From NCBI GenBank assembly GCA_046753905.1, contig JBHHUU010000002.1, positions 1-42,190 of the forward strand: a stretch of DNA of 42,190 bases, written 5' to 3'. A program made the position numbers and the translations under genes. The number at the start of each line of letters is the position of its first letter. Position 1 is the first letter of the stretch. The notes under the pieces were generated by a model. The model was not told where the DNA came from. It searched no databases and was given only the letters and a program-made list of their open reading frames with translations. Source of the DNA: Nitrospirota bacterium. GTDB taxonomy: Bacteria; Nitrospirota; Nitrospiria; JBHHUU01. Positions 1 through 36,971 of this stretch are shown piece by piece.

Positions 1-61
1 GCTTATAAACGAGCAATCCTAAAAAAATCAGTCCATTTTTTTCAGTCCATTATAGTTTTGC

Positions 62-135
62 AACTAACATCTTAAGCTCACTGGTTTTTGCGGAGCGCCA
101 GCGGAGCAAAAATCCAGTGCAGTGATTTGTTATAC
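62..135 (-). repeat. attC site (about 74 nt) closing the DUF4258 / zinc-finger cassette
   Basis: AACTAAC at 62-68 and GTTATAC at 129-135. Inner arms CTCACTGG / CCAGTGCAG pair with one unpaired base. Outer arms ATCTTAAGCTCACTGG ... TCCAGTGCAG are shared with the attC at 1851-1983. The stop codon of ORF 130-369 lies inside the 129-135 box. Confidence 0.7.
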
Positions 136-369
136 TTTTTCTACAAAGTTGAATACTGGAACTTCAATTGTTTTTACTGGATGAAATTGGTTTTTTACAA
201 ACTTCAAAAGGTCATCTGTGACGGCTGGAGAATAAGTTTTTTCACCACAGCTAGTACAAACTTCAGCAGGTACATCTTCCACAAAAATATATTTATGCTT
301 ATCCTCATCCTCATAACTAAATGTTACATTAGCTTTTTCTATCTTACCTCCACAAAATACACATTTCAT
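130..369 (-). CDS. YgiT-type zinc-finger (MqsA N-terminal-like) small protein, putative antitoxin partner of the upstream DUF4258 gene
   Basis: 79 aa with two CxxC pairs (CVFCGG ... CTSCGE). It starts 6 nt after the DUF4258 ORF on the same strand. Family call is from memory of this architecture. Confidence 0.6.
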   Translation of the reverse strand: MKCVFCGGKIEKANVTFSYEDEDKHKYIFVEDVPAEVCTSCGEKTYSPAVTDDLLKFVKNQFHPVKTIEVPVFNFVEKV

Positions 370-375
370 AAAAAA

Positions 376-675
376 TTACCTCCTTATTTTACAGTCAATC
401 CATTCTTCTGGATCAGGACCATAGGTAGTAATAATAACTACTGATGGTGGAAGCGATAATTGAACATGAATATCTTTTCCATTTTCAGTTTTCCCATATA
501 TCAGACAACTTGGGGAATATTTATCCTTTGGATATTCTTCAATGATTTCTCCCATCATTACAGTTTCTACAATCTCCTGCCTGTCTATTGATCTTTTAAT
601 CATTCGCTTCACAGCATGATCTGAAATACGATACTCTCCTTTTAATATTTTATCCTGTATTGGCTTAATTTCCAT
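376..675 (-). CDS. DUF4258 family protein (toxin-like)
   Basis: 99 aa. ISDHAVKRMIKRSI ... GEIIEEYPKDK ... CLIYGKTENGKDIHVQ resembles the DUF4258 pattern and parallels the paralog at 2273-2596. Confidence 0.6.
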   Translation of the reverse strand: MEIKPIQDKILKGEYRISDHAVKRMIKRSIDRQEIVETVMMGEIIEEYPKDKYSPSCLIYGKTENGKDIHVQLSLPPSVVIITTYGPDPEEWIDCKIRR

Positions 676-700
676 ATGTTTTTTTTATTTAAAGTTTAAA

Positions 701-763
701 GTCTAACTTTTGGCATAAGGTGCCGCTTTTTTTTGCGGTCACTTCTTCATGCCATTGTTAGGA
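701..763 (-). repeat. attC site (about 63 nt) closing the membrane-protein cassette
   Basis: GTCTAAC at 701-707 and GTTAGGA at 757-763. Internal imperfect palindrome GGCATAAGGTGCCGC-T8-GCGGTCACTTCTTCATGCC. It lies directly after the stop of ORF 767-1318. Confidence 0.65.
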
Positions 764-766
764 TTT

Positions 767-1318
767 TTAATAAACAGTTGAGACGGTATATTTTTTGTCT
801 CCAACCATAGCTGTATATTCTAAAATAAAATATTTGTTGCATCTAAACAACTTGCGAAAAATATTAGACTTAAATTGATAAAACGTGTTAGGCAACTCAT
901 TCTCCAACGCTATTGAGGTTTTTACGGTTTGGTCCGTCTGAATTACTATCTGGCTGTGAACATATTGCCCGGAAGTTTTATCCATTACTTTAATTATATA
1001 AGAACTCTCAGAAATATCTCTATCTGCATTACTGGTGATATTAAGATTTTTAGTACTTTTTTTTAACCGAAAGAGTGTTAAATACACAACTGAACCAGTA
1101 TTATTCTTAAAATTAATGTCAAAAGCAGGGTATTGCCGTTGATTTATTAAAATATTAGCTCTCGATAAAAATACCTCCAAATTTGAAATATTTTGAACTT
1201 TCCTTTTATTCCATAAAAAAATAACAACTGGCCACACTGCAGCTGTGAAAGAAAAAATCACCCAATTTGGGAGGTCATTCTCTTGAAGCCAAGAATAGAA
1301 GTTGACAAGTTTTTCCAT
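767..1318 (-). CDS. Hypothetical single-pass membrane protein; no family recognised
   Basis: The ORF track gives 767-1390. I prefer Met25 (ATG at 1318) because the longer form overlaps hicB by 53 nt and crosses a cassette-boundary-like box at 1336-1342. It has one hydrophobic helix (WVIFSFTAAVWPVVIFLW) followed by about 140 aa of polar, beta-looking sequence. Confidence 0.5.
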   Translation of the reverse strand: MEKLVNFYSWLQENDLPNWVIFSFTAAVWPVVIFLWNKRKVQNISNLEVFLSRANILINQRQYPAFDINFKNNTGSVVYLTLFRLKKSTKNLNITSNADRDISESSYIIKVMDKTSGQYVHSQIVIQTDQTVKTSIALENELPNTFYQFKSNIFRKLFRCNKYFILEYTAMVGDKKYTVSTVY

Positions 1319-1335
1319 CAGATTTATTGCTTCAC

Positions 1336-1365
1336 TCCTAACGACAGAGTTCACTGGCGACTCGT
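1336..1365 (-). repeat. Relic attC arm (R'/L' side only) overlapping the hicB 3' end
   Basis: TCCTAAC at 1336-1342 is followed by GACAGAGTTCACTGGCGAC. TCACTGGCGAC is the same arm sequence as in the attC at 1851-1983 (the attC at 2628-2757 shares only CTGGCGAC). No convincing partner arm was found. Confidence 0.4.
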
Positions 1366-1619
1366 TCCTTGGTCTCTGCCACATCGACATAGGTGAATAA
1401 TAAATCTTTAAAATCCGGATTCTCCAAATGCGTTAAGACCGGCTTCCTCTCGGGAACTTCTTGTACGGCTTCTTGATAGGCATCCAGGTTTATTTGGATG
1501 GCTTTGATGGCAGCTTGTTTGGCCGTGTCAAGACTTTCTCCATACGTTACGATGGCTAAATCAGGCACCTGAACGGAAAAACCCGCTTCCGTTGGTTCCA
1601 ACATAATTAGAAACCGCAT
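1338..1619 (-). CDS. hicB: HicB-like antitoxin (UPF0150 fold)
   Basis: 93 aa. MRFLIMLEPTEAGFSVQVPDLAIVTYGESLDTAKQAAIKAI matches the HicB N-terminal pattern. Its start overlaps the hicA stop by 1 nt. Confidence 0.75.
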   Translation of the reverse strand: MRFLIMLEPTEAGFSVQVPDLAIVTYGESLDTAKQAAIKAIQINLDAYQEAVQEVPERKPVLTHLENPDFKDLLFTYVDVAETKERVASELCR

Positions 1620-1819
1620 TACTTTACCTCCAGTTTAATCTTCTTCACCGTATCAACGGCTCGCCCCACCGGAACATCTTTTTGCGGATGAACGATGGTG
1701 ACGACAAACCGACTCTCCGGATGCTTAAAATTGTAATGATCGCCTTTGATGTTAACCCGCGTCCAACCAAATTCCTTGGCCAGATTAATTAGTTCCCGAC
1801 TGGTATATCGTTTCGGCAT
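1619..1819 (-). CDS. hicA: HicA mRNA interferase toxin (YcfA family)
   Basis: The ORF track starts at 1879, inside the attC. I use Met21 (MPKRYTSRELINLAKEFGWTRVNIKGDHYNFKHP), the typical HicA length and motif. Confidence 0.8.
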   Translation of the reverse strand: MPKRYTSRELINLAKEFGWTRVNIKGDHYNFKHPESRFVVTIVHPQKDVPVGRAVDTVKKIKLEVK

Positions 1820-1850
1820 ATTATCAGCGACAAGGATTTTGATTCCACGT

Positions 1851-1983
1851 GGACAACATCTTAAGCTCACTGGCGACAACCGATAGGACGATTAAGTCTT
1901 GATTAACCACAACGGATTAACGACAGACAAGGTCAGGAAAATCAAGCCAGCGGGTTGGCGTCCAGTGCAGCGTTGGGTTAGGC
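1851..1983 (-). repeat. attC site, long class (about 133 nt)
   Basis: GGACAAC at 1851-1857 and GTTAGGC at 1977-1983. Arms CTCACTGGCGACAACCGATAGGACGAT ... GCGGGTTGGCGTCCAGTGCAGCGTTGGGTTAGGC are nearly identical to those of 2628-2757, and the centre differs. Confidence 0.75.
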
Positions 1984-2025
1984 GATGATGCTCTGTAAAT
2001 CTGTGAAATGTGGAGACCTGACCGA

Positions 2026-2060
2026 CCCTCCTCTTGTTTCCCTCCTGTTTCCTCCTGTTT
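2026..2060 (-). repeat. Three tandem approximately 10-nt units, each containing a Shine-Dalgarno-like AGGAGG (minus strand)
   Basis: The + strand reads CCTCCTCTTGTTT C CCTCCTGTTT CCTCCTGTTT, directly after the stop codon (2061-2063) of ORF 2061-2276. Confidence 0.6.
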
Positions 2061-2276
2061 TTAAATAACAATTGGATGCAATTCATACACCCTTGCCTTT
2101 TTTACAGCTGTTTTTAGATCACCACTCCTTAAAGCCTCCCTTACATCATCTAGCTTGTAAGCGTCTTCAAGCGAGAGATATGGAGACCATTCATCATCAT
2201 TAACAATCAACTCAACATCAACTTCTGCTACATACTTTCCTTCATAAATATATTTCGTTTTCTTTCGAGTCTTCAT
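2061..2276 (-). CDS. Small hypothetical protein, likely antitoxin-type partner of DUF4258 gene 2273-2596
   Basis: 71 aa and acidic. Its start overlaps the upstream ORF stop by 4 nt (ATGA-type coupling). No family recognised. Confidence 0.5.
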   Translation of the reverse strand: MKTRKKTKYIYEGKYVAEVDVELIVNDDEWSPYLSLEDAYKLDDVREALRSGDLKTAVKKARVYELHPIVI

Positions 2277-2596
2277 CGTTTTCGCTCCGTAAAACTGTCA
2301 TTCCATCGCTGAGGATCAGGCCGATAAGCTGTTACAAGAACAGCCGGACGGTTGTGGCCTATTGGTATACCCCAAACTACATGTACAGGGTTTCCGTTAC
2401 CATCACTTTGTAAAACAAGGATTGAAGTGCCTTTTGGATAGTTGGGATAATCTTCTATCAATACAGCGTTTTTGATACCTTCCACAATTTCTCTGGCGAT
2501 GAGATTATCATTAGCAAGTTCATCATATCCATGCTCGGATATGCGTACATCGCAAGATTCAACAAGTTCTTTGATCCCTTCTAAGGTGTTACTCAC
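2273..2596 (-). CDS. DUF4258 family protein (toxin-like), second paralog
   Basis: 107 aa. ISEHGYDELANDNLIAREIVEGIKNAVLIEDYPNYPKGTSILVLQSDGNGNPVHVVWG parallels ORF 376-675. Confidence 0.6.
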   Translation of the reverse strand: MSNTLEGIKELVESCDVRISEHGYDELANDNLIAREIVEGIKNAVLIEDYPNYPKGTSILVLQSDGNGNPVHVVWGIPIGHNRPAVLVTAYRPDPQRWNDSFTERKR

Positions 2597-2627
2597 ACGC
2601 TATCCTGATTTCTTTGTATATTTTTGC

Positions 2628-2757
2628 AACTAACGTCTGTGTTCTCTGGCGACAACTGATAGGACGATAAGCCTTGATTAACCACAATGCGTTAACGACT
2701 AAAAAACCTTGCAATTAGCGCCTGCGGGTTGGCGTCCAGTGCAGTGTTGGGTTAGGC
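2628..2757 (-). repeat. attC site, long class (about 130 nt)
   Basis: AACTAAC at 2628-2634 and GTTAGGC at 2751-2757. It shares arm sequences with 1851-1983. Confidence 0.75.
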
Positions 2758-2883
2758 GATGATACTTCCAATATTGGCAACTACTTATTTATTGCCCTCT
2801 GGATATGATATTACCTGTCAGGGTTATTTCTCTCACTTTTCATATTGGGATTACCACATACCGTCTCCTAAAAACTTTGAAAA

Positions 2884-2923
2884 GCCTACCGCTCCCGCCG
2901 TCTGCTGCAACGCTGGGTTAGGC
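2884..2923 (-). repeat. Short or degenerate attC-like site closing the DUF4160/DUF2442 cassette
   Basis: AGCCTACC at 2883-2890 pairs with GGTTAGGCT at 2916-2924. The stop of ORF 2918-3184 lies inside GTTAGGC (2917-2923). At about 40 nt it is shorter than normal attC sites. The true left end may be the GCAACTAC box at 2777-2784. Confidence 0.4.
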
Positions 2924-3184
2924 TATTGGTTGCATTCTCAATAAGTGTCGCACTTCAATGCCGTCGTCTAACTCCTCCCAGTAAATAGCAAAGCCTCCTG
3001 GCTCAAGAGACCATTTAGCCCGTTGCTCTGAAGTGGCTTTTGCTAACCAATCTAACCATTCCACTTGGTCTATTGCCAAACTTATCTCTCTGCCATCGCT
3101 GAGGGATACACGGAGCGTGTTACCAGCAAAGTGGACATCGGTTGCTCCAACCTCCTCTATGACTTTACTTGCTAAAGTAGCCAT
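2918..3184 (-). CDS. DUF2442 family protein
   Basis: 88 aa. ...LRVSLSDGREISLAI ... WLAKATSEQRAKWSLEPGGFAIYWEELDDGI matches the DUF2442 pattern. It overlaps the upstream DUF4160 ORF by 20 nt. Confidence 0.65.
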   Translation of the reverse strand: MATLASKVIEEVGATDVHFAGNTLRVSLSDGREISLAIDQVEWLDWLAKATSEQRAKWSLEPGGFAIYWEELDDGIEVRHLLRMQPIA

Positions 3185-3407
3185 TCCATACCTCCAATAA
3201 TCTATCCTGATTCTGGCGTGTTAATTTCAAAATACGGTTCAATTCGGCTGGGTTATAGCCATGACTGTATTCTACCACCACAGGCTGAAGCCAAATTTTG
3301 GCTTCATTTTCACCATGCAAAACATGAACATGTGGTGGTTCGTTTATATCAGAAGAATAGAACCGGAATTTGCAACCGCCAATTAAGCTTGTTGGCATTG
3401 TAAACAC
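3165..3407 (-). CDS. DUF4160 family protein
   Basis: 80 aa. KFRFYSSDINEPPHVHVLHGENEAKIWL matches the DUF4160 signature. It is the first ORF after attI. Confidence 0.65.
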   Translation of the reverse strand: MFTMPTSLIGGCKFRFYSSDINEPPHVHVLHGENEAKIWLQPVVVEYSHGYNPAELNRILKLTRQNQDRLLEVWNGYFSK

Positions 3408-3439
3408 TCTTCAACTTTGGATAAAACCTTTGGTTTATA

Positions 3440-3470
3440 TTGTATGAGCCTAACGACTGCTTAACATAGT
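3440..3470 (-). other. attI region (candidate crossover boxes)
   Basis: GCCTAAC at 3448-3454 and GCTTAAC at 3459-3465 read GTTAGGC / GTTAAGC on the cassette strand. They lie between the first cassette ORF and intI. CCTAACGAC recurs at the relic boundary 1337-1345. Confidence 0.5.
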
Positions 3471-3477
3471 TATTTGC

Positions 3478-3515
3478 CCTGATAATTTGCATTTTTTGAT
3501 ATTATCAGGTATAAT
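3478..3515 (+). promoter_or_regulatory. Candidate intI promoter (TTGCAT-17-TATAAT) bracketed by a perfect 9-bp inverted repeat
   Basis: -35 TTGCAT at 3487-3492, -10 TATAAT at 3510-3515, 17-nt spacer. CCTGATAAT at 3478-3486 is the exact reverse complement of ATTATCAGG at 3501-3509. Confidence 0.5.
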
Positions 3516-3606
3516 TGCCTTGTGTTATATGCGTATAAATCCTTCTTTCTTATAAGGAAATTATTCTTTTAAAAATATATTTTTAGTTTAACAGAGGAGG
3601 CAGTGG

Positions 3607-4593
3607 ATGTCAACAGAAAAAAAGAAGAAATTGCTTGAGGAGGTACGGGAGTTTATGCGTCTAAGACATTATTCAATTCATACCGAGCGGACTTATTGTG
3701 AGTGGATCACGCGTTATATCCGTTATCACAAGATGCGTAAGAGGGAGGATTTACAGGGGGGTGAAAAGAAAATAGAGGATTTTTTGACCCATCTGGCTGT
3801 GAAGGAGGGTGTTGCCCCTGCTACCCAGAATTTAGCTATGAATGCCCTGGTCTTTTTGTACAGACAGATATTGAAAGTTCCGTTACAGGAAGAGATAAAT
3901 ACTATAAGGGCTGCGAAAAAGAGGCATATTCCTGTTGTTTTAACACGCAATGAGGTGTGTCAGGTAATTGATCTGCTTGAAGGAAGCCCTCAGCTTATTG
4001 TCAAATTATTATATGGCAGTGGGCTTAGGATTATGGAAGCGGTAAGGCTTCGGGTGAAGGATGTTGATTACAGTATGAAACAGTTGACTGTTCGCTCTGG
4101 AAAGGGGGCTAAAGATCGTGTTACAACTTTTCCTCAGTCTCTTATTCCATTGTTGGAAAATCATTTGGCTAAGGTTAAGGTGCTGCATCAGCAGGATTTG
4201 GTTCAGGGATATGGTGAGGTCTACTTACCCTATGCACTGGCGCGTAAATACCCCAATGCGGCTAAGGAATGGGGATGGCAATATATATTTCCTTCACGAC
4301 AGCTCTCTAAAGATCCGAGAAGCAGAAAGGTGCGAAGACATCATGTTGATCCAAGTGTGGTTAATAAGGCTATTAAGTCTGCTGTTAAAAAGATAGGATT
4401 GAGAAAGCGAATAAGCGCTCATACTTTTCGTCATAGTTTTGCTACTCATCTACTGGAGCGAGGCACTGATATTCGGACTATTCAGGCTTTGATGGGGCAT
4501 AAAGATATCTCAACAACTATGATTTATACTCATATCTTACAACAGGGAGGCTATGGAGTTCTAAGTCCTCTGGATGATTTGAGGGAATATTGA
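3607..4593 (+). CDS. intI: Integron integrase
   Basis: 328 aa. RHRY catalytic residues are in context ([32 protein letters not shown]). The IntI-specific extra segment is present: [24 protein letters not shown]...[12 protein letters not shown]. The C-terminus [12 protein letters not shown] resembles IntI1. RBS GAGGAGG lies 6 nt upstream. Confidence 0.92.
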
Positions 4594-4625
4594 GATCGCC
4601 TTAGCTTTATCAATTCGCTTAGATA

Positions 4626-4654
4626 TTGCAAAAATTATAACTATTTTTTATAAT
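4626..4654 (+). promoter_or_regulatory. Candidate sigma-70 promoter for the Bat operon (TTGCAA-17-TATAAT)
   Basis: -35 at 4626-4631, -10 at 4649-4654, about 180 nt upstream of the MoxR start. The region is AT-rich, so chance matches are possible. Confidence 0.35.
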
Positions 4655-4836
4655 TCTCTTTTTAACAGTCTATGTAGTAGGTTTGTTTTTCTAAGAGCTT
4701 CTTTTTCACCTTAATATAAAAAGAATTCATTAAAAATTGTTTGGTTTAAAGAAATTAAAGCCCACTTAGATAGTTCTAACTATTTTCATGGTGGGGAGAA
4801 TCTGGCATGGATCAAAATAATAAGGAGGGCAAATAG

Positions 4837-5832
4837 ATGATAGGTGGAGGGATAACAGCAATAAATGAAAAGATAAAGGAGGAGAGTATATTTATACAGA
4901 ATCTTACAGCAGAACTTGACAGGGTAATTGTTGGGCAGAGGTATCTTATTGAGAGGGTTATGGTAGGGCTTCTTGGCAATGGGCATATACTTGTTGAGGG
5001 TGTGCCCGGTCTTGCTAAGACAACGGTGATAAAGGCATTGTCCAGAACAATAAAGGCAGATTTTCAGAGGTTGCAGTTTACTCCTGACCTTTTGCCTGCG
5101 GATATTATAGGAACGCTGATTTATAATCCAAAGGACGGGAGTTTTCATACAAAAAAAGGACCGATATTTGCCAATATTATACTTGCAGATGAGATAAACA
5201 GGGCACCTGCCAAGGTGCAGTCTGCCCTTTTAGAGGCTATGGAAGAGAGACAGGTTACTATAGGAGATAATACCTTTCATCTGGATGAGCCTTTTCTTGT
5301 AATGGCTACACAGAATCCAATAGAACAGGAGGGGACATATCCTCTGCCAGAGGCTCAGGTTGACAGGTTTATGCTTAAGGTAAATATCACATACCCCACC
5401 ATAGAAGAGGAGCATAAGATCCTCCAGAGGATGAGTTTTACTGATAAGAGGATTGAGGTAAATCAGGTCATTACTTCTGAGGATATTATGAAGGCAAGAA
5501 AGGTGGTGGATGAGGTCTATATGGATGAAAAGATTGAGAGATATATCTTGGATATTATATTTGCCACAAGAGAACCTGACAGATATAAACTGAATGACCT
5601 GACAAGCCTTATCCAGTATGGTGCATCACCACGCGCTACTATCTATCTTACTGTTGCCTCTAAGGCTTATGCTTTTATTCAGGGGAGGGGATATGTAACA
5701 CCCCAAGATGTGAAGTATATAGGACCTGATATATTAAGACACAGGGTGATTGTAAGTTATGAGGCTGAGGCTGAGGAGATGATATCAGACGATATTATAA
5801 AGAGGATATTTGAAGAGATAGAGGTTCCCTGA
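4837..5832 (+). CDS. MoxR-family AAA+ ATPase
   Basis: 331 aa. Walker A GVPGLAKT, Walker B ILADEINRA, and QNPIEQEGTYPLPEAQVDRF, typical of MoxR. RBS AAGGAGGG upstream. Confidence 0.9.
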   Translation: MIGGGITAINEKIKEESIFIQNLTAELDRVIVGQRYLIERVMVGLLGNGHILVEGVPGLAKTTVIKALSRTIKADFQRLQFTPDLLPADIIGTLIYNPKDGSFHTKKGPIFANIILADEINRAPAKVQSALLEAMEERQVTIGDNTFHLDEPFLVMATQNPIEQEGTYPLPEAQVDRFMLKVNITYPTIEEEHKILQRMSFTDKRIEVNQVITSEDIMKARKVVDEVYMDEKIERYILDIIFATREPDRYKLNDLTSLIQYGASPRATIYLTVASKAYAFIQGRGYVTPQDVKYIGPDILRHRVIVSYEAEAEEMISDDIIKRIFEEIEVP

Positions 5833-6707
5833 TGATACCTAAGGATGTAATTAAAAATATACGCCGTATTCAGATAACCACTTCAAGGATGGTTACAGAT
5901 ATATTTGCAGGACACTATCACAGTGCATTTAAGGGCAGAGGCATGGAATTCAGCGAGGTGCGGGAGTATCAGCCGGGTGATGATATCCGTTCCATAGACT
6001 GGAATGTTACTGCAAAGATGGGCAATCCATATATAAAAAAGTTTGTTGAGGAGAGGGAGCTGACTGTTATGGTAATCATGGATATATCGCTTTCATCTGT
6101 ATTTGCCACAACAGGACAGATTAAGAGTAAGTTATCTGCTGAGATATGCTCTCTCCTGTCACTCTCTGCTCTCCAGAACAATGACAAAATAGGGCTTATT
6201 CTCTTTACTGACAGGATAGAGAAGTTTGTCCCCCCCAGAAAGGGGATGCAGCATGTATTAAGACTCATCCGTGAGGCAATATATTTTAAGCCTGAGGGGA
6301 GGGGGACTGATATAAGAACTGCTCTTGAATATCTCAGTAAGATAGCATCACGAAGGACAGTTGTATTTATTATATCTGATTTTTATGCCCCTGATTTTAA
6401 GAAGGCTATCTCTATTGCCAACAGGCGGCATGATATTGTAGCTATAACTATAACTGATCCTGTGGAATTTGATCTGCCTAATATCGGTATAGTGCAGTTA
6501 GAAGAGGCAGAGACAGGGATGGAGTTTTTGATAGATACATCTGATCCTTTTGTAAGGAAGGAGTACAATAAAAGGGCAGACAGGCTCTTTGATGAGAGGA
6601 AGAGGCTTTTTAATTCTGTGGGTGTGGATAATATAGATATTCGTACAGATATTCCCTATGCTCAATCTCTGGTAAGGTTTTTCAGAAAGAGGGAGAGGAG
6701 GAGATAG
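5832..6707 (+). CDS. DUF58 protein (VWA-like, MoxR partner)
   Basis: 291 aa. GxxxSxFKGRGMEFSEVREYQPGDDIRSIDWNVTAK is the DUF58 signature. Its start overlaps the MoxR stop (ATGA). Confidence 0.85.
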   Translation: MIPKDVIKNIRRIQITTSRMVTDIFAGHYHSAFKGRGMEFSEVREYQPGDDIRSIDWNVTAKMGNPYIKKFVEERELTVMVIMDISLSSVFATTGQIKSKLSAEICSLLSLSALQNNDKIGLILFTDRIEKFVPPRKGMQHVLRLIREAIYFKPEGRGTDIRTALEYLSKIASRRTVVFIISDFYAPDFKKAISIANRRHDIVAITITDPVEFDLPNIGIVQLEEAETGMEFLIDTSDPFVRKEYNKRADRLFDERKRLFNSVGVDNIDIRTDIPYAQSLVRFFRKRERRR

Positions 6708-6709
6708 AG

Positions 6710-7681
6710 GTGAGATTATCTGTTAAACGGGTTATTATATGCCTCTTCCTTATATCTATATTCTGTGCAGGAGGTGATATATATTCATCCTCTGTCTCTA
6801 CCAATAAAGATAGCCTGCCTCTGGAGGTCACAGCAGAAGTTGATAAAGTGTCTGTAAATATAGGTGATAAACTCAGGTATACTATAACAGCGGCAGCAGG
6901 AAGGGATATAGAGATAGAGATGCCAAAGTTTGGTGAAAACCTTGGTGATTTTACTATAAGAGACTTTGGCACATCAGAGGGTGGATGGTGGTTTTTTGGA
7001 AAGAAGAGACTGGTTCAGTGGTATATCTTAGATATCTATGAGACAGGAAAATATACCATTCCTAAGTCAATAATAAGATACAGGAAAAAGGGTGAAAAGG
7101 AATGGAAGAGTATAGAGACAGATGAGATAGAGATAGAGGTGATAAGCCTCCTTGATAATAATGGTAAAAAGGGTGATATCAGGGGGATAAGGGAGCCTGT
7201 GGGATTACCATTCAGAGTAAACCCCTATTTAATTGAAGGAATTTTATTAGTTATTCTTGCTGCTGCAGGCGGTATATGGTTCTTTTTCTTCAGGAAAAAG
7301 AGAGAGCCAGAGATAAAGAGACCTTCTGTGCCTGCCCATGAGGCAGCCTATAGAAGGCTTGAGAGGCTAAGGGAAAAGGAGCTTATTAAAGAGGGGAGGG
7401 TTAAGGATTATTATATTGAGCTATCTGATTGTGTAAGACATTATCTTGAAGACAGGTTTACTCTTAGGGCACCTGAGATGGCTACAGAGGAGTTTTTAGG
7501 GATGCTTAAGGATTCCAGAGAGTTATCTTATGATCATAAGGTATTATTAAAGGAGTTTTTGGTGCACTGTGATATGGTAAAGTTTGCTAAATATGGTCCT
7601 GGTAAGTCAGAGATAGATGCAAGCCTTGAGTCAGCATTCAGGCTTGTGGATGAGACCAAAACGATGGAGGCAGTGGGTTAA
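6710..7681 (+). CDS. BatD-like / DUF4381-type membrane protein (short paralog of 10600-12411)
   Basis: GTG start with AGGAGG RBS. It has a signal peptide, a beta-rich domain, a TM helix (LLVILAAAGGIWFFFF), and a C-terminal helical region (HEAAYRRLERL...YYIELSDCVRHYLEDRF...TEEFL...CDMVKFAKY) parallel to the BatD C-terminus. Confidence 0.6.
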   Translation: MRLSVKRVIICLFLISIFCAGGDIYSSSVSTNKDSLPLEVTAEVDKVSVNIGDKLRYTITAAAGRDIEIEMPKFGENLGDFTIRDFGTSEGGWWFFGKKRLVQWYILDIYETGKYTIPKSIIRYRKKGEKEWKSIETDEIEIEVISLLDNNGKKGDIRGIREPVGLPFRVNPYLIEGILLVILAAAGGIWFFFFRKKREPEIKRPSVPAHEAAYRRLERLREKELIKEGRVKDYYIELSDCVRHYLEDRFTLRAPEMATEEFLGMLKDSRELSYDHKVLLKEFLVHCDMVKFAKYGPGKSEIDASLESAFRLVDETKTMEAVG

Positions 7682-7685
7682 TCAG

Positions 7686-8681
7686 ATGATATTTCATAAT
7701 CCAGAGGTCTTAATATTATTGCCTTTTATAATAGTGTGTATCATATATGCAAAGAAAAAGAGGAGGCATGCTGGTTTCAGGTTCTCATCCAGTGTTCTTA
7801 TCAAGGGTTTGAAGCCATCTTTCAGACTGAGGTCAGAAAAAGGGCTTATATTTCTGAGGATGACAGGTCTCTGTTTAATAGTCATAGCCCTTGCAAGACC
7901 ACAATCTTCTATATCAGAGACAAAGATTACTACAGAAGGTATTGATATTATACTGGCTATTGATACATCTACAAGCATGCTTGCAGAGGACTTTACTCTG
8001 AGAGGAAAGAGACAGAACAGGCTGAAGGTGGTCAAGAGCGTGGTCAAGGAGTTTGTTAAAGGTAGACCTGATGACAGGATAGCCCTGATAGCATTTGCTG
8101 CAAGAGGTTATATGGTCTCTCCTCTCACGCTTGACCATGGGTGGCTATTGCAAAACTTAGAGAGGGTTAAGATAGGTATGATAGAGGATGGCACTGCTAT
8201 CGGCTCTGGTATAATGTCTTCTCTCAACAGGATAAAGGATACAGACTCAAAAGGAAAGGTGATAATACTCCTTACAGACGGAAGGAATAATGCAGGTAAG
8301 ATATCACCGCTAACTGCGGCAGAGGCTGCAAAGGCGTTAAAGGTAAAGGTTTATACTATTGGAGCAGGGACAAAGGGTCTCGCCCCCTACCCTGTAAAAG
8401 ATTTCTTTGGGAATACTGTCTATAAATCAGTCAAGATAGATATAGATGAAGATATTCTGAACAAGATAGCTCAAAAGACAGGCGCAAAATACTTCAGGGC
8501 AACAGACACAAAGAGCCTGATTAAGATATATAAGGAGATCGACAGACTGGAAAAGAGACCTATTGAAGAGACAGGATATCTGAAATATAATGAACTTTTT
8601 CCATATTTCCTGACTCCTGCTATTGTTTTGATATTTTTAGAGGTTGCTTTAGGGAATACTATATTCAGGAGATTGCCATAG
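7686..8681 (+). CDS. batA: BatA-type membrane VWA protein
   Basis: The ORF track starts at 7617. I prefer ATG 7686 (MIFHNPEVLILLPFIIV...), the typical N-terminal TM start, just after the upstream stop. The VWA MIDAS motif DTSTSM is present, and there is a C-terminal TM. Confidence 0.8.
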   Translation: MIFHNPEVLILLPFIIVCIIYAKKKRRHAGFRFSSSVLIKGLKPSFRLRSEKGLIFLRMTGLCLIVIALARPQSSISETKITTEGIDIILAIDTSTSMLAEDFTLRGKRQNRLKVVKSVVKEFVKGRPDDRIALIAFAARGYMVSPLTLDHGWLLQNLERVKIGMIEDGTAIGSGIMSSLNRIKDTDSKGKVIILLTDGRNNAGKISPLTAAEAAKALKVKVYTIGAGTKGLAPYPVKDFFGNTVYKSVKIDIDEDILNKIAQKTGAKYFRATDTKSLIKIYKEIDRLEKRPIEETGYLKYNELFPYFLTPAIVLIFLEVALGNTIFRRLP

Positions 8682-8683
8682 AT

Positions 8684-10597
8684 ATGAAGTTCGGTAATAT
8701 CAATGCAGGATATATGCTTTTATCAGTCGTTGGGTTGAGTCTCTTCTACTTCTGGGTATCTAAAAAGAGGAAGAGACTGAAGGAGATATTTGCGGAGAGA
8801 GGTCTTCTGAATATTCTACTCTCTTCGGCAAACATTGCTGCTCAGAGACAGAAGGCAATATTAATAACTGGCGGAATCTTTTTATGCGTATTATCTTTAA
8901 TGAGGCCGGAGTGGGGGTTCCACTGGGAAAAAGTAAAGAGGAGAGGACTTGATATAATAATAGCCATAGATACATCAAAGAGTATGCTGGCAGAGGATGT
9001 AAAGCCAAACAGGCTTGAACGGGCAAAACTCGCAGTTAAAGACATGATTAAAAAACTCAGAGGCGACAGGATCGGCCTTGCAGCATTTGCAGGAAGTGCG
9101 TTTCTTCAATCTCCTCTGACTGTTGACTATAATGGCTTTATACTCTCATTGGACAGCCTTGCTACAGACACTATTCCAAAGGGAGGGACATCCCTCTCAA
9201 GTGCTATAAGAGAGGCTATAAAGGGGTATGAAGGAAAAGAGAAAAAGTATAAGGTGCTGGTAATCATTACAGATGGCGAGACCCACGAGGGCGACCCTGT
9301 AAAGGCAGCAGAAGAGGCAAAGGATGCAGGCATTAAGATATTCTGTATAGGTATAGGCACAAAGGAGGGGGAGTTGATACCTGTCAGAGATGAGAGAGGC
9401 AATAAGGTCTTTTTGAAAGATAGCCGGGGCAATGTGGTCAAATCCCGTCTGGATGAAACGACACTTAAAAAGATTGCATTAAGCACAGGTGGAAGCTATG
9501 TCCGCTCTACTGCAAAGGAATTTGGATTAGCCCTGATCTATAGAGAGAGGCTCTCAAAGATGGAGAAAAAGGATATTGAGAATAAGATGGTTAAACACTA
9601 TGAGGAGAGGTTTCAGTTACCATTAGCTCTTGCCCTGATATTCCTATTGGCAGAGATGTTTGTGAATGAAAGAAAGAGGGAAAAGAGGAATCATGCAGAA
9701 GATGGCGGAGGCAGAAAGAGAGGATTCTTAAAGTGGATCTGGGGTAATCGCTCCTTTATATGGGTCTTAATTGTGATGTCAGGACTTTTAATAACATCAG
9801 AAGCCCTTGCAGCATCTACTAAGAAGATATTGAATAAGGCAAACGGATTATACAGGGAAGGCAAGTATGGTGATGCTATAAAGAGATATAATGAAATATT
9901 GAGCAATGATCCTGACTCTCCGATTGCAAACTTTAATGCTGGAGCTGCATATTATAAACAGGGAGACTACAAAAAGGCAGAAGAATTTTTTTTAAAGGCA
10001 TTGACAACAGAAGATAGGGAGCTTGAGGTAATGGCAAATTATAATATGGGCAACTCAAAATATAGAGAGGCAATGCTCAAGAAAGATAAAGAGCCTCACG
10101 AGGCAGCAGACCTATTAAAGGAGTCCCTTGACTATTATAAGAGGGCAATAGAGTTAAACAGAGATGATAAGGACGCAAAATTCAATCATGAATTTACAGA
10201 GAAGAGTCTAAAGATATTATTAGATAAACTTAAAAACATGGAAAAAAAAGAGGGGGAGTCTGATAAAAAGGATAAACCCGAAGAAAATAGAGGTAAGAAA
10301 GAGAGAAAAGAACAGGCGGATAGCTCTAAGAGAGAGGATAAAAAGAAAAAAGGGGATGGAAAAAAGCAGGCGGGAGATACCCCAAGAGGTGCTAATGATA
10401 AAAAAGAACCTGAAGACACAAAAACTAGACAGAAAAAAGAAGAGGCTGGACAAAAGGGAGATAAAGAGGTAAAAGAGATGTCTGAGGATGAGGCAAGGAT
10501 GTTATTAGAGGGATATATGCAGGAAGAGGAGTCAGAAAAGAGATTGAAATTTGAAAAGAGAGAGGGTTATTATCCTGAGGTATTAAAAGATTGGTAA
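8684..10597 (+). CDS. batB: BatB-type VWA protein fused to a BatC-like TPR region and a Lys/Glu-rich tail
   Basis: 637 aa. N-terminal TMs, MIDAS DTSKSM, an internal TM, TPR repeats (LYREGKYGDAIKRYNEIL...), then a highly charged K/E/D tail. Confidence 0.8.
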   Translation: MKFGNINAGYMLLSVVGLSLFYFWVSKKRKRLKEIFAERGLLNILLSSANIAAQRQKAILITGGIFLCVLSLMRPEWGFHWEKVKRRGLDIIIAIDTSKSMLAEDVKPNRLERAKLAVKDMIKKLRGDRIGLAAFAGSAFLQSPLTVDYNGFILSLDSLATDTIPKGGTSLSSAIREAIKGYEGKEKKYKVLVIITDGETHEGDPVKAAEEAKDAGIKIFCIGIGTKEGELIPVRDERGNKVFLKDSRGNVVKSRLDETTLKKIALSTGGSYVRSTAKEFGLALIYRERLSKMEKKDIENKMVKHYEERFQLPLALALIFLLAEMFVNERKREKRNHAEDGGGRKRGFLKWIWGNRSFIWVLIVMSGLLITSEALAASTKKILNKANGLYREGKYGDAIKRYNEILSNDPDSPIANFNAGAAYYKQGDYKKAEEFFLKALTTEDRELEVMANYNMGNSKYREAMLKKDKEPHEAADLLKESLDYYKRAIELNRDDKDAKFNHEFTEKSLKILLDKLKNMEKKEGESDKKDKPEENRGKKERKEQADSSKREDKKKKGDGKKQAGDTPRGANDKKEPEDTKTRQKKEEAGQKGDKEVKEMSEDEARMLLEGYMQEEESEKRLKFEKREGYYPEVLKDW

Positions 10598-10599
10598 AA

Positions 10600-12411
10600 A
10601 TGAGACGGTTATTAGTTATTAGTTGTCAGTTGTCGGTATTTATTATTAGCCTATTTTTGTTACTACAGGTATCTTTTGCCCAGGAGATACGGTTTGAGGC
10701 AGGAGTGGACAGAAATACAGTATCATTGGGGCAGAGTGTGCAGCTCAGCCTGACATTTCATGATACTCAGGATATCCCTGCGCCTGAGTTAAACAAGATT
10801 GAGGGTTTTAAATCAAGGTATGTAGGTCCGTCTTCAAGGATGTCTATCATAAATGGAAAGGTCTCATCATCTATAAGCCATATCTATTCTCTTCTCCCTA
10901 TAAAGACAGGCAGATTTCAGATAGGACCGATATCTTTCTCTTATAAGGGCAACACCTATAAGTCAAATTCAGTCGTTATTGAAGTAGTGGATAGCCCTTC
11001 TCCACAGATACCTCATTCTCAATCCTCAAATCAAAAGGCTATAGACCTGAAAGACAGGGTCTTTCTTGTTATAAAACCAGAAAAAAAGAAGGCATATATA
11101 AACGAAAACATTAGATTAATCATAAAACTATATATCTATAATGTTACCATAAAGGATATTGAATATCCAGAGTTTGAACATGATGGTTTTTCTGTAGGAG
11201 AATTCGGCAAACCGAAAGAATATCAGGAGATAGTCGGAGGCATGCCCTATAATGTCTTAGAGTTTGATACAGAGATATTCGGGACAAGGCCTGGCAAATT
11301 TAAACTTGGACCTGCAAAGATAAAGTGTAATCTAATAGTTAAAAAGGGACGAAGACGAAGTTTACCATCCATCTTTGATGACTTTGATGACTTCTTTGGC
11401 AGATATGAGGCATATCCGTTAGACCTGACATCATCTGACATACCAATAACCATAAAATCACTTCCCACAGAAAACAGACCTGAAGATTTTGCAGGTGCGG
11501 TCGGGAGATATGACCTCCATATAACAGCATCTCCGAAAAAGATAGAGGCAGGAGACCCTGTTACCCTAAAGATAACTATAACAGGTAAAGGCAATCTCAA
11601 TACCGTAAGTTTTCCTCATATAGATATAAAAGATGGATTCAAGACATATAAGCCTCAGATAAAACAGAATAGGAATAAAAAGGTATTTGAACAGGTTATT
11701 ATTCCTAAAAAAGAGACAATAAAAGAGGTCCCAGAGGTCAGTTTCAGCTTCTTTGACCCTGAAAAGGAGAGATACTATACCCTTGCTAAAGGTCCTATTC
11801 CCATCGTAGTAACAAAGCCGGACAGAGAGGAGAGTGTAGAGATAGTTGAGATGCCGAAGGGGTCTGTAGTACCTGTAAAAAAGGAGATACTTGGGAAAGA
11901 TATTGTCTACATAAAGACCTCCATTGGAAGAGTGAAGAGGAGAGGAGACTATCTATATAAGAATAGTATATTCTGGTTTATTCAGGTCATCCCGCTCTTT
12001 GCTGTTGTATCTCTGTCTCTGGTACAGAGAAAGAGAAGGAAGATAAAAAGCGATGTAAGGTATGCAAAGAGTCTCATTGCATACAAAAAGGCAGCAAAGG
12101 GGATAAAGAAGGCTGGTCAGCTTCTGTATGAAGAAAATAGAGAGGAGTTTTACCACTTAATATTTAAGATAATTCAAGAATATATAGGTGATAAGTTTCA
12201 TCTCGTATCACAGGGTATCACAATGGGGGTCATTGATGAGACCCTGAGGCGATCTCAAGATATTAACGAGGATATCCTCAGCAGGATAAAAGAGATATTC
12301 ACAGAGTGCGATATGGCACGATATGCCCCTTCAGGTTTTACAAAAGGGAAGATGGAAGATACATTGAAGAAACTAAAGGAGGTTATAGAGTACTTGGAGA
12401 GGAAGGGATAG
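10600..12411 (+). CDS. batD: BatD (oxygen-tolerance family) protein
   Basis: The ORF track starts at TTG 10591. ATG 10600, 2 nt after the batB stop, is more plausible. It has a signal peptide, repeated beta domains, a TM near FWFIQVIPLFAVVSLSLV, and a DUF4381-like C-terminus. Confidence 0.75.
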   Translation: MRRLLVISCQLSVFIISLFLLLQVSFAQEIRFEAGVDRNTVSLGQSVQLSLTFHDTQDIPAPELNKIEGFKSRYVGPSSRMSIINGKVSSSISHIYSLLPIKTGRFQIGPISFSYKGNTYKSNSVVIEVVDSPSPQIPHSQSSNQKAIDLKDRVFLVIKPEKKKAYINENIRLIIKLYIYNVTIKDIEYPEFEHDGFSVGEFGKPKEYQEIVGGMPYNVLEFDTEIFGTRPGKFKLGPAKIKCNLIVKKGRRRSLPSIFDDFDDFFGRYEAYPLDLTSSDIPITIKSLPTENRPEDFAGAVGRYDLHITASPKKIEAGDPVTLKITITGKGNLNTVSFPHIDIKDGFKTYKPQIKQNRNKKVFEQVIIPKKETIKEVPEVSFSFFDPEKERYYTLAKGPIPIVVTKPDREESVEIVEMPKGSVVPVKKEILGKDIVYIKTSIGRVKRRGDYLYKNSIFWFIQVIPLFAVVSLSLVQRKRRKIKSDVRYAKSLIAYKKAAKGIKKAGQLLYEENREEFYHLIFKIIQEYIGDKFHLVSQGITMGVIDETLRRSQDINEDILSRIKEIFTECDMARYAPSGFTKGKMEDTLKKLKEVIEYLERKG

Positions 12412-23763: not shown

Positions 23764-23765
23764 AG

Positions 23766-23877
23766 CACCCCACCCTAACCCTCCCCCACCTGCCTGTTGC
23801 CTGCCTGTTGGCAGACAGGGCAGACAGGTCAAGGGGGAGGGAACTCAACGTTCTGGTTCAATCTTCAAGATTGAACC
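23766..23877. repeat. Composite REP-like palindromic element, copy 1
   Basis: CACCCTAACCCTCCCCC ... GGGGGAGGG encloses a CCTGCCTGTTG x2 / GCAGACAGG x2 palindrome. A second hairpin follows: GGTTCAATCTT-C-AAGATTGAACC at 23855-23877. Confidence 0.8.
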
Positions 23878-26534: not shown

Positions 26535-26607
26535 CACCCTCACCCTAACCCTCTCCCATCAAGGGAGAGGGAACTCGTTGCTGGTTCAATCTTGTAGATT
26601 GAACCAG
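26535..26607. repeat. Composite REP-like palindromic element, copy 2
   Basis: CACCCTCACCCTAACCCTCTCCC-ATCAA-GGGAGAGGG, then CTGGTTCAATCT-TGT-AGATTGAACCAG. It has the same two-module layout as copy 1. Confidence 0.8.
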
Positions 26608-35271: not shown

Positions 35272-35295
35272 GTTATTTTAAGTCCCAAAGCCCCC

Positions 35296-35338
35296 CTCAC
35301 CCTAACCCTCTCCCACGAGGGGAGAGGGTTAGGGTGAG
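35296..35338. repeat. REP-like element, copy 3: perfect 19-bp stem hairpin
   Basis: CTCACCCTAACCCTCTCCC-ACGAG-GGGAGAGGGTTAGGGTGAG. It overlaps the last codons and stop of the murE ORF (35329). Confidence 0.85.
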
Positions 35339-36922: not shown

Positions 36923-36971
36923 CCCCCTCACCCTAACCCTCTCCCACGAGGGGAGAGGGGATGGTGTGGGG
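36923..36971. repeat. REP-like element, copy 4 (degenerate right arm)
   Basis: CCCCCTCACCCTAACCCTCTCCC-ACGA-GGGGAGAGGGGATGGTGTGGGG. It supplies the last codons (PSPLVGEG) and stop of the ftsI ORF. Confidence 0.8.

Follow-up and report, generated by a model that had tools for sequence, protein, structure and literature searches.

Positions 1–4593 of contig JBHHUU010000002.1, from an uncultured Nitrospirota bacterium, very probably constitute a complete chromosomal integron, consisting of an integron integrase gene (intI), an attI site, and an array of attC-bounded cassettes. The window, by which we mean the whole stretch of DNA analysed, is the entire 42,190-bp contig, and the array side of the integron ends at its position 1. 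An earlier preliminary description of this DNA had proposed an intact chromosomal integron. This proposal is borne out by a full-length IntI, a conserved putative attI, four attC sites supported by covariance models, the presence of dcw and MoxR/Bat genes on the same contig, and an independent assembly that reproduces the junction between the integron and its chromosomal neighbor at 100% identity. The recombination platform comprises the following features.

Positions 3607–4593, plus strand: intI, the integron integrase gene, encoding 328 aa at full length in a single uninterrupted frame.
Positions 3446–3475, plus strand: the predicted attI core, with the R box GCCTAAC at 3448–3454 followed by a conserved ...TTAACA segment.
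Positions 3478–3509, plus strand: the palindrome CCTGATAA-N16-TTATCAGG, overlapping a promoter-like TTTGCA-18-TATAAT at 3486–3515 that reads into intI.

The open reading frame (ORF) at 3607–4593, which is preceded by a GAGGAGG ribosome-binding site, encodes an IntI-family tyrosine recombinase with the IntI-specific domain. The protein passes the NCBIfam model TIGR02249 for integron integrases with 448.5 bits (cutoff, 265), whereas it fails the models for XerC (TIGR02224; 145.1 bits, cutoff 335) and XerD (TIGR02225; 140.5 bits, cutoff 330) and also scores well under the cutoff of the XerA model. Residues 9–323 align continuously with Vibrio cholerae IntI4 (PDB 2A3V; E = 4.9e-98). In contrast, Xer-like chains (XerC-like 4A8E and XerA 5HXY) cover the protein in two pieces, residues 9–187 and approximately 240–311. 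Since residues 188–239 are spanned by the IntI4 alignment and skipped by the Xer-type chains, they correspond to the IntI-specific insertion. The catalytic residues (R-K-H-R-H-Y) are retained in the alignment with 2A3V, within the motifs GSGLR (R141), SGKG (K166), HTFRHS, GHKD, and IYTH, and the extra domain likewise shows its tryptophan and P...RRHH positions. The preliminary description had recognized the recombinase as an integron integrase from a distinguishing segment, which is indeed present, and had named the absence of the insertion and a grouping with XerC/D as the outcome that would speak against it; the insertion was found and the Xer models failed. Thousands of relatives with more than 70% identity are already named "integron integrase" by their sources, and one from a Nitrospirae genome shares 83% identity.

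The predicted attI lies directly upstream of intI. We aligned the 150 bp preceding intI with the corresponding regions of seven relatives, derived from differently labelled metagenome-assembled genomes (MAGs). The AAC of the attI box and its flanking positions are invariant in all eight sequences. The crossover is predicted between 3453 and 3454, that is, between GCCTAA and C, and incoming cassettes would be expected to recombine at this point. The palindrome in its general form, CCTGATAA-N14-16-TTATCAGG, recurs in eight related loci, 70–190 bp ahead of the match to intI (for example, L002 4223–4250, L003 3000–3027, L004 1379–1405, L006 537–564, L012 13–40, L034 7817–7844, and L038 6678–6705) and persists in relatives whose labels name different phyla. 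In the window it is present once, where 0.09 copies would be expected, and in appearance it is unlike the gammaproteobacterial LexA box. The promoter-like sequence at 3486–3515 is a candidate PintI and the palindrome a candidate operator, although the latter may instead be an accessory IntI-binding site.

The attC sites were located with covariance models. Rfam holds no attC family, and a scan of the window at the Rfam gathering thresholds returned no match. From species-representative genomes we collected 48 loci with genes for IntI relatives, and we built a first model, R1, from 14 clear attC hairpins in seven of them, in which compensatory changes occur at 9 of the 16 pairs of the consensus structure. 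Applied to all the other loci, R1 yielded 30 matches, every one on the strand expected from the orientation of intI, and a second model, R2, was built from these 30 attC sites. Neither model contains any sequence from the window. R2 was run over the whole window on both strands with filters off, corresponding to 84 kb of strand, and yielded exactly four matches with E < 0.05 in the 42 kb. All four are on the plus strand to the left of intI, within 63–2757, and each directly follows a minus-strand ORF group. The next-best match reached 9.3 bits (E = 3.3). Because these four matches all fall within 3.5 kb and on one strand, chance is excluded as their source. The preliminary description had held that the lack of any covariance-model match in 1–3500 would overturn it; all four R2 matches lie there. 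The four sites are as follows.

Positions 701–763, plus strand: attC B, with the R' box GTCTAAC at 701–707 and the R'' box GTTAGGA at 757–763.
Positions 1851–1983, plus strand: attC D, with the R' box GGACAAC at 1851–1857 and the R'' box GTTAGGC at 1977–1983.
Positions 2628–2757, plus strand (which carries its bottom strand): attC E, with the R' box AACTAAC at 2628–2634 and the R'' box GTTAGGC at 2751–2757.
Positions 62–135, plus strand (R2 match, 63–135): attC A, with the R' box AACTAAC at 62–68 and the R'' box GTTATAC at 129–135.

The highest-scoring site is attC B, which reaches 37.9 bits with R2 on the plus strand (E = 2e-7) and 8.9 bits on the opposite strand. R1 gives it 31.4 bits (E = 2.9e-5), with z-scores of −5.2 for the fold and −4.8 for the pairing of its arms, the latter computed here and below against shuffled partners. 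attC D scores 20.7 bits with R2 (E = 0.0042); its arms alone fold with a free energy of −15.0 (z = −3.0), and only 0.2% of background segment pairs of the same geometry reach −14. attC E follows with 19.0 bits (E = 0.011; arm pairing z = −1.9) and attC A with 16.7 bits (E = 0.045; R1, 15.4 bits; fold z = −2.3; arm pairing z = −3.1). R1 ranks B and then A highest in the window. A, B, and D are predicted to fold with paired arms, and their bulged bases are confined to the 3' arm of the plus strand. This asymmetry identifies the plus strand as the recombinogenic bottom strand, in agreement with the minus-strand orientation of the cassette genes. The sites fall into two types: A, D, and E have both arm sequences in common, whereas B is of a different, short type. 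D and E are approximately 92% identical, and A and D share a 19-nt 5' arm and the 3' arm TCCAGTGCAG.

A cruder scan for AAC...GTT hairpins was also considered as an attC test. It placed B, A, and D high, yet ranked an unrelated palindrome at 23773–23856 first, and the covariance models were used instead. This palindrome belongs to a GC-rich repeat, CACCCTAACCCTCTCCC-N4-GGGAGAGGG(TTAGGGTG), which occurs between the dcw genes at approximately 23765–23860, 26535–26575, 35293–35334, and 36924–36960 and looks like a REP or terminator element. Similar copies are present in unrelated genomes (L036, approximately 3700–3855; L023, 6561–6594; and L034, 1738–1831). Such GC-rich palindromes give weak false matches to the attC models, as at 35300–35334 (7.7–9.6 bits).

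Every ORF on the cassette side is encoded on the minus strand, divergently from intI; the ORF list thus agrees with the divergent arrangement given in the preliminary description. When only the model-supported sites are counted, the visible array consists of four cassettes (3453–2634, 2633–1857, 1856–707, and 706–68), followed by a short remainder.

Positions 2634–3453, minus strand: cassette 1 (820 bp), with a DUF4160 gene (3165–3398), a DUF2442 gene (2918–3184), an attC relic, an ORF-less stretch, and attC E.
Positions 1857–2633, minus strand: cassette 2 (777 bp), with a DUF4258 toxin-like gene (2273–2596) and a partner ORF of 71 aa (2061–2276).
Positions 707–1856, minus strand: cassette 3 (1150 bp), with hicA (1619–1819), hicB (1338–1619), a relic attC (1336–1394), and a gene for a 183-aa membrane protein (767–1318).
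Positions 68–706, minus strand: cassette 4 (639 bp), with a DUF4258 toxin-like gene (376–675) and a gene for a YgiT/MqsA-type zinc-finger protein (130–369).
Positions 1–67, minus strand: DNA beyond the attC A crossover, with no ORF; the start of a further cassette or chromosomal flank.

Judged by family matches, four of the five ORF groups look like toxin–antitoxin pairs. Pfam assigns DUF4160 (E = 1.1e-17) and DUF2442 (7.3e-13) in cassette 1, DUF4258 (7.7e-15) to the ORF at 2273–2596 in cassette 2, HicA (3e-10) and HicB (5.8e-10) in cassette 3, and DUF4258 (2e-22) in cassette 4, where the second protein matches TIGR03831 (YgiT_finger; E = 5.6e-9) above its cutoff. The 71-aa ORF at 2061–2276 has no family match in Pfam, NCBIfam, or PADLOC, and a PADLOC search for defence systems among the nine cassette proteins returned no match. 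In other chromosomal integrons, toxin–antitoxin pairs are thought to stabilize the arrays. The fifth group is an orphan membrane protein of 183 aa without a match in Pfam, NCBIfam, or PADLOC. Its family has eight members of approximately 185 aa, including that of the window, and relatives are encoded, for instance, at L053 759–1319, L054 495–1055, and L052 6001–6564. Its AlphaFold model (pLDDT 71.6) comprises an N-terminal transmembrane helix and a predicted beta-sandwich; a fold search against the PDB gave nothing with E ≤ 0.001, and TM-scores did not exceed 0.36. With four toxin–antitoxin-like pairs and one orphan, the cargo is a weaker hunting ground than the preliminary description had hoped. 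Two alternative gene starts were rejected: TTG 1879 for hicA and ATG 1390 for the membrane protein both lie inside attC sequence, while ATG 1819 and ATG 1318, respectively, fit the cassette boundaries and the gene calls in databases.

Two of the putative boundaries have decayed. The preliminary description held that each ORF group ends in an imperfect palindrome bounded by such boxes. This holds for A, B, D, and E by folds, arm pairing, and R2, and fails for 1336–1394 and 2777–2923. The former (site C) was rejected as a working attC since its arms are unpaired and R2 does not match it, and the latter (site F) for the same reasons (arm pairing z = +1.4). The description's further point, that two cassette stop codons sit inside GTTRRRY boxes, is read directly from the sequence: TAA 130–132 lies within GTTATAC 129–135 and TAA 2918–2920 within GTTAGGC 2917–2923. 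The second of these belongs to the relic beside the DUF2442 stop, which consists of a 3' arm and GTTAGGC box at 2899–2923 and a 5'-arm-like stretch at 2777–2802; these arms resemble those of D and E. As this relic is unpaired and undetected by R2, the functional end of cassette 1 is probably attC E. An ORF-less stretch of approximately 160 nt (2758–2916) separates attC E from the 3' arm of the relic. It includes the degenerate 5'-arm copy (GCAACTAC..., 2777–2802) and may be what remains of a tandem attC or an empty cassette.

Where hicB meets the membrane-protein gene, a 5' arm that includes TCCTAAC (1336–1342) aligns with D and E, and the 3' arm is degraded to CATAGGT (1388–1394), where the other sites have GTTAGG. 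The codon at 1389–1391 in the hicB frame is TAT in place of the TAA at the other sites, and HicB runs for 17 more codons to a TAG in the old R' box. If TAA was the ancestral state, mutation to TAT within the old R'' box seems to account for the 17 additional codons of HicB. In L053 and L054, a homologue of the membrane protein with 51% identity stands alone as a cassette, with GTTAGGA 15 nt before the start codon and a 37.9-bit attC of its own right after the stop. This arrangement supports a history in which hicAB and the membrane-protein gene began as separate cassettes and later merged, so that cassette 3 apparently combines two former ones.

These features are consistent with the following mode of action. 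IntI would be transcribed rightward, probably from the near-consensus promoter at 3486–3515, with attI immediately to its left and the cassette array running leftward, its genes reading away from intI. Four cassettes end in an attC whose plus strand is predicted to fold into a hairpin of the type recognized by IntI, with paired R boxes, an unpaired spacer, and 3'-arm bulges. By analogy with studied integrons, a cassette could be excised as a circle through attC × attC recombination and, with its bottom strand folded, reinserted at attI through attI × attC recombination. Decay of two older attC sites has fused the adjoining units.

Several points weigh against this reading. R1 and R2 are home-made covariance models with a shortened and rough calibration, distinct from attC_4 of IntegronFinder. 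attC A and E score low with R2 (only 16.7 and 19.0 bits), and the stem of E is mismatched and weakened. Two of the six putative boundaries are non-functional relics, and these relics together with the stem of E suggest that the array may be partly fossil. No more than four cassettes can be seen, and extension of the array failed. Leftward promoter-like sites are present at 3613–3585 and 3528–3501; no cassette promoter (Pc) could be called with confidence in the region, where promoter-like sites number 14 against 13.3 expected from shuffling.

Some of these points bear on the possibility that the integron is fossilizing, such that the platform remains recognizable while the array is no longer shuffled, its attC sites are decaying, and the toxin–antitoxin pairs persist as ordinary addiction modules. 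Two relic attC sites with unpaired arms, the weakened stem of attC E (z = −1.9), and the reading of HicB through a destroyed R'' box would all be expected under such a process, and the same fused unit of hicAB and the transmembrane protein occurs in two other samples. Nevertheless, we regard this reading as unlikely, since IntI is full length with its catalytic and extra-domain positions all intact, the putative attI is conserved, attC B and D are well formed, and the approximately 92% identity between D and E suggests recent activity or duplication.

Two independent assemblies bear on the arrangement of the complete integron. A short-read assembly (L001) matches the window over 3190–5337 with 100% identity and thereby connects cassette 1, intI, and moxR. 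A second short-read contig (L051; SRR29324594) matches 673–1854 at 100% identity and is essentially cassette 3. This contig starts 2 nt inside the predicted attC D crossover, comprises one cassette plus 34 nt, and was seen in two samples. Its edge may reflect branching of the assembly graph at a recombination point, namely variation of the cassette order in the population, or may be a coincidence.

The preliminary description also regarded positions 1–67 as the start of another cassette and the array as larger than visible. Bases 51–72 match 2617–2638 at 91%, and the first approximately 17 nt after the crossover (51–67 versus 2617–2633) are identical at 16 of 17 positions, reading TTAGTTGCAAAA[C/A]TATA on the minus strand; this likeness reaches past the attC into the first bases of the cassette. 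Non-cassette DNA, however, also follows the last attC of every array. That the array goes on past position 1 is plausible and, in our judgment, somewhat probable, but bases 1–67 may just as well be chromosomal DNA flanking the last attC. The claim of a larger array is thus plausible rather than established, as the window is the whole contig, bases 1–67 hold no ORF, and attempts at extension were unsuccessful. A look-up of IntI found only a 2.1-kb contig that falls within the window, and one of HicB only a cassette-sized contig, also inside it. The exact attC-arm pattern retrieved from metagenome contigs only one unrelated high-GC contig, and look-ups of four cassette proteins found nothing.

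To the right of the integron, the contig carries a MoxR/DUF58/BatA–BatB operon, cobQ, and a dcw cluster (PBP, murE, murF, murD, murC, and ftsA). Specifically, 4837–12411 holds an operon for a MoxR ATPase, a DUF58 protein, and BatA–BatB-type VWA-TPR proteins directly downstream of intI; a TPR protein gene and cobQ come next. Because the dcw genes, cobQ, and the Bat/MoxR genes share a contig with the integron, and the intI–moxR junction is reproduced in L001, the integron is chromosomal. The best named relatives of MurC are from Nitrospirae/Nitrospirota at 64–67% identity, with none above 68%, which places the host in Nitrospirota.

The platform itself might be a recent acquisition, with intI and attI moving between phyla on a larger element. 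IntI has relatives at 70–83% identity in genomes labelled Nitrospirae, SAR324, Actinomycetota, Brocadiaceae, Deltaproteobacteria, Nitrospinia, Planctomycetes, and Promethearchaeota, against nothing above 68% for the MurC of the host, although IntI proteins are generally well conserved and the taxonomic labels of MAGs may reflect binning errors. IntI relatives on L012 (Promethearchaeota MAG JAIWHJ010000112), L003, L004, L005, L008, and L038 share 70–89% identity over the best segment, and their contigs are binned as an Asgard archaeon, SAR324, Actinomycetota, Brocadiaceae, Nitrospinia, and Planctomycetes. Spread of the platform across phyla would account for this distribution, as would mis-binning. 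Neither the cassettes nor the flanks share synteny with any of the 48 related loci, and the conserved attI/promoter palindrome travels with intI, as a moving module would predict. However, the large ORFs in the 38 kb to the right of intI include no transposase, Tn402/Tn7 module, or plasmid gene, and the G+C content of the integron (0.33–0.42) is within the range of the contig and similar to the rest of it. A recently acquired, horizontally mobile platform is therefore improbable. A more specific and rather speculative version holds that the intI–attI module belongs to an IntI clade moving between distant phyla, possibly into Asgard archaea, and carries its own regulatory palindrome (CCTGATAA-N14-16-TTATCAGG) over the intI promoter, either as a non-LexA operator or as an accessory IntI-binding site of a kind not described for studied integrons.

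The remaining alternative, an Xer- or phage-type recombinase beside a toxin–antitoxin island with terminator hairpins, is refuted for practical purposes: such islands and intergenic hairpins are common and unrelated GC-rich palindromes of the window weakly match the attC model, but the XerC, XerD, and XerA scores are far under their cutoffs, the IntI insertion is present, the attC matches are strand-specific with R boxes and bulges, and the putative attI is conserved with other integrons.

The complete chromosomal integron described here adds one more documented example in Nitrospirota and provides small, clean examples of attC decay that fuses cassettes, including the loss of a stop codon in a former R'' box. 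It opens no new question, as the recombinase clade is abundantly annotated, the cargo consists mostly of toxin–antitoxin modules, and the array is cut by the end of the contig. The preliminary description considered integrons outside Proteobacteria little explored; such integrons, those of Nitrospirota included, already appear in genome surveys (PMC9668308). In particular, Ghaly et al. (2022) listed Nitrospirota among the phyla with attC sites and found toxin–antitoxin genes to be the commonest cassette cargo (PMC9668308). With IntegronFinder 2.0, complete RefSeq genomes of Nitrospira/Nitrospirota showed only two CALIN elements, which are attC clusters without an integrase (PMC9024848).

In comparison with known systems, the element shares the recombinase family and the attI/attC logic of the mobile class 1, 2, and 3 integrons. 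It is not one of them: with NF011946 (cutoff, 435), IntI reaches 295.8 bits and is thus outside this equivalog of the clinical classes, the cassettes carry no resistance genes, a Tn402/Tn7 context is absent, and the location is chromosomal. Among its closest counterparts are environmental integrons of MAGs such as the loci L002 (Nitrospirae; JALUUO010000098) and L003 (SAR324; JADGAV010000061), which have IntI proteins with 81–83% identity, the same predicted attI/promoter architecture including the palindrome, and upstream cassettes whose attC sites were detected with the model used here. The cassette content of these loci is entirely different, however, and their flanking genes differ, without synteny. 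Unlike the superintegron of Vibrio cholerae with its uniform VCR-like repeats, the array has heterogeneous attC sites, one of a 63-nt type and a family of 74–133 nt, and it shows four visible cassettes and two decayed sites in a Nitrospirota rather than a gammaproteobacterial host. In its overall architecture, the element resembles this superintegron (VchIntIA/IntI4, PDB 2A3V) in the end-to-end alignment of IntI, the extra domain, the divergent intI, the attC sites after ORFs, the chromosomal location, and the toxin–antitoxin cassettes. It is a real but ordinary chromosomal integron, of a kind already known.

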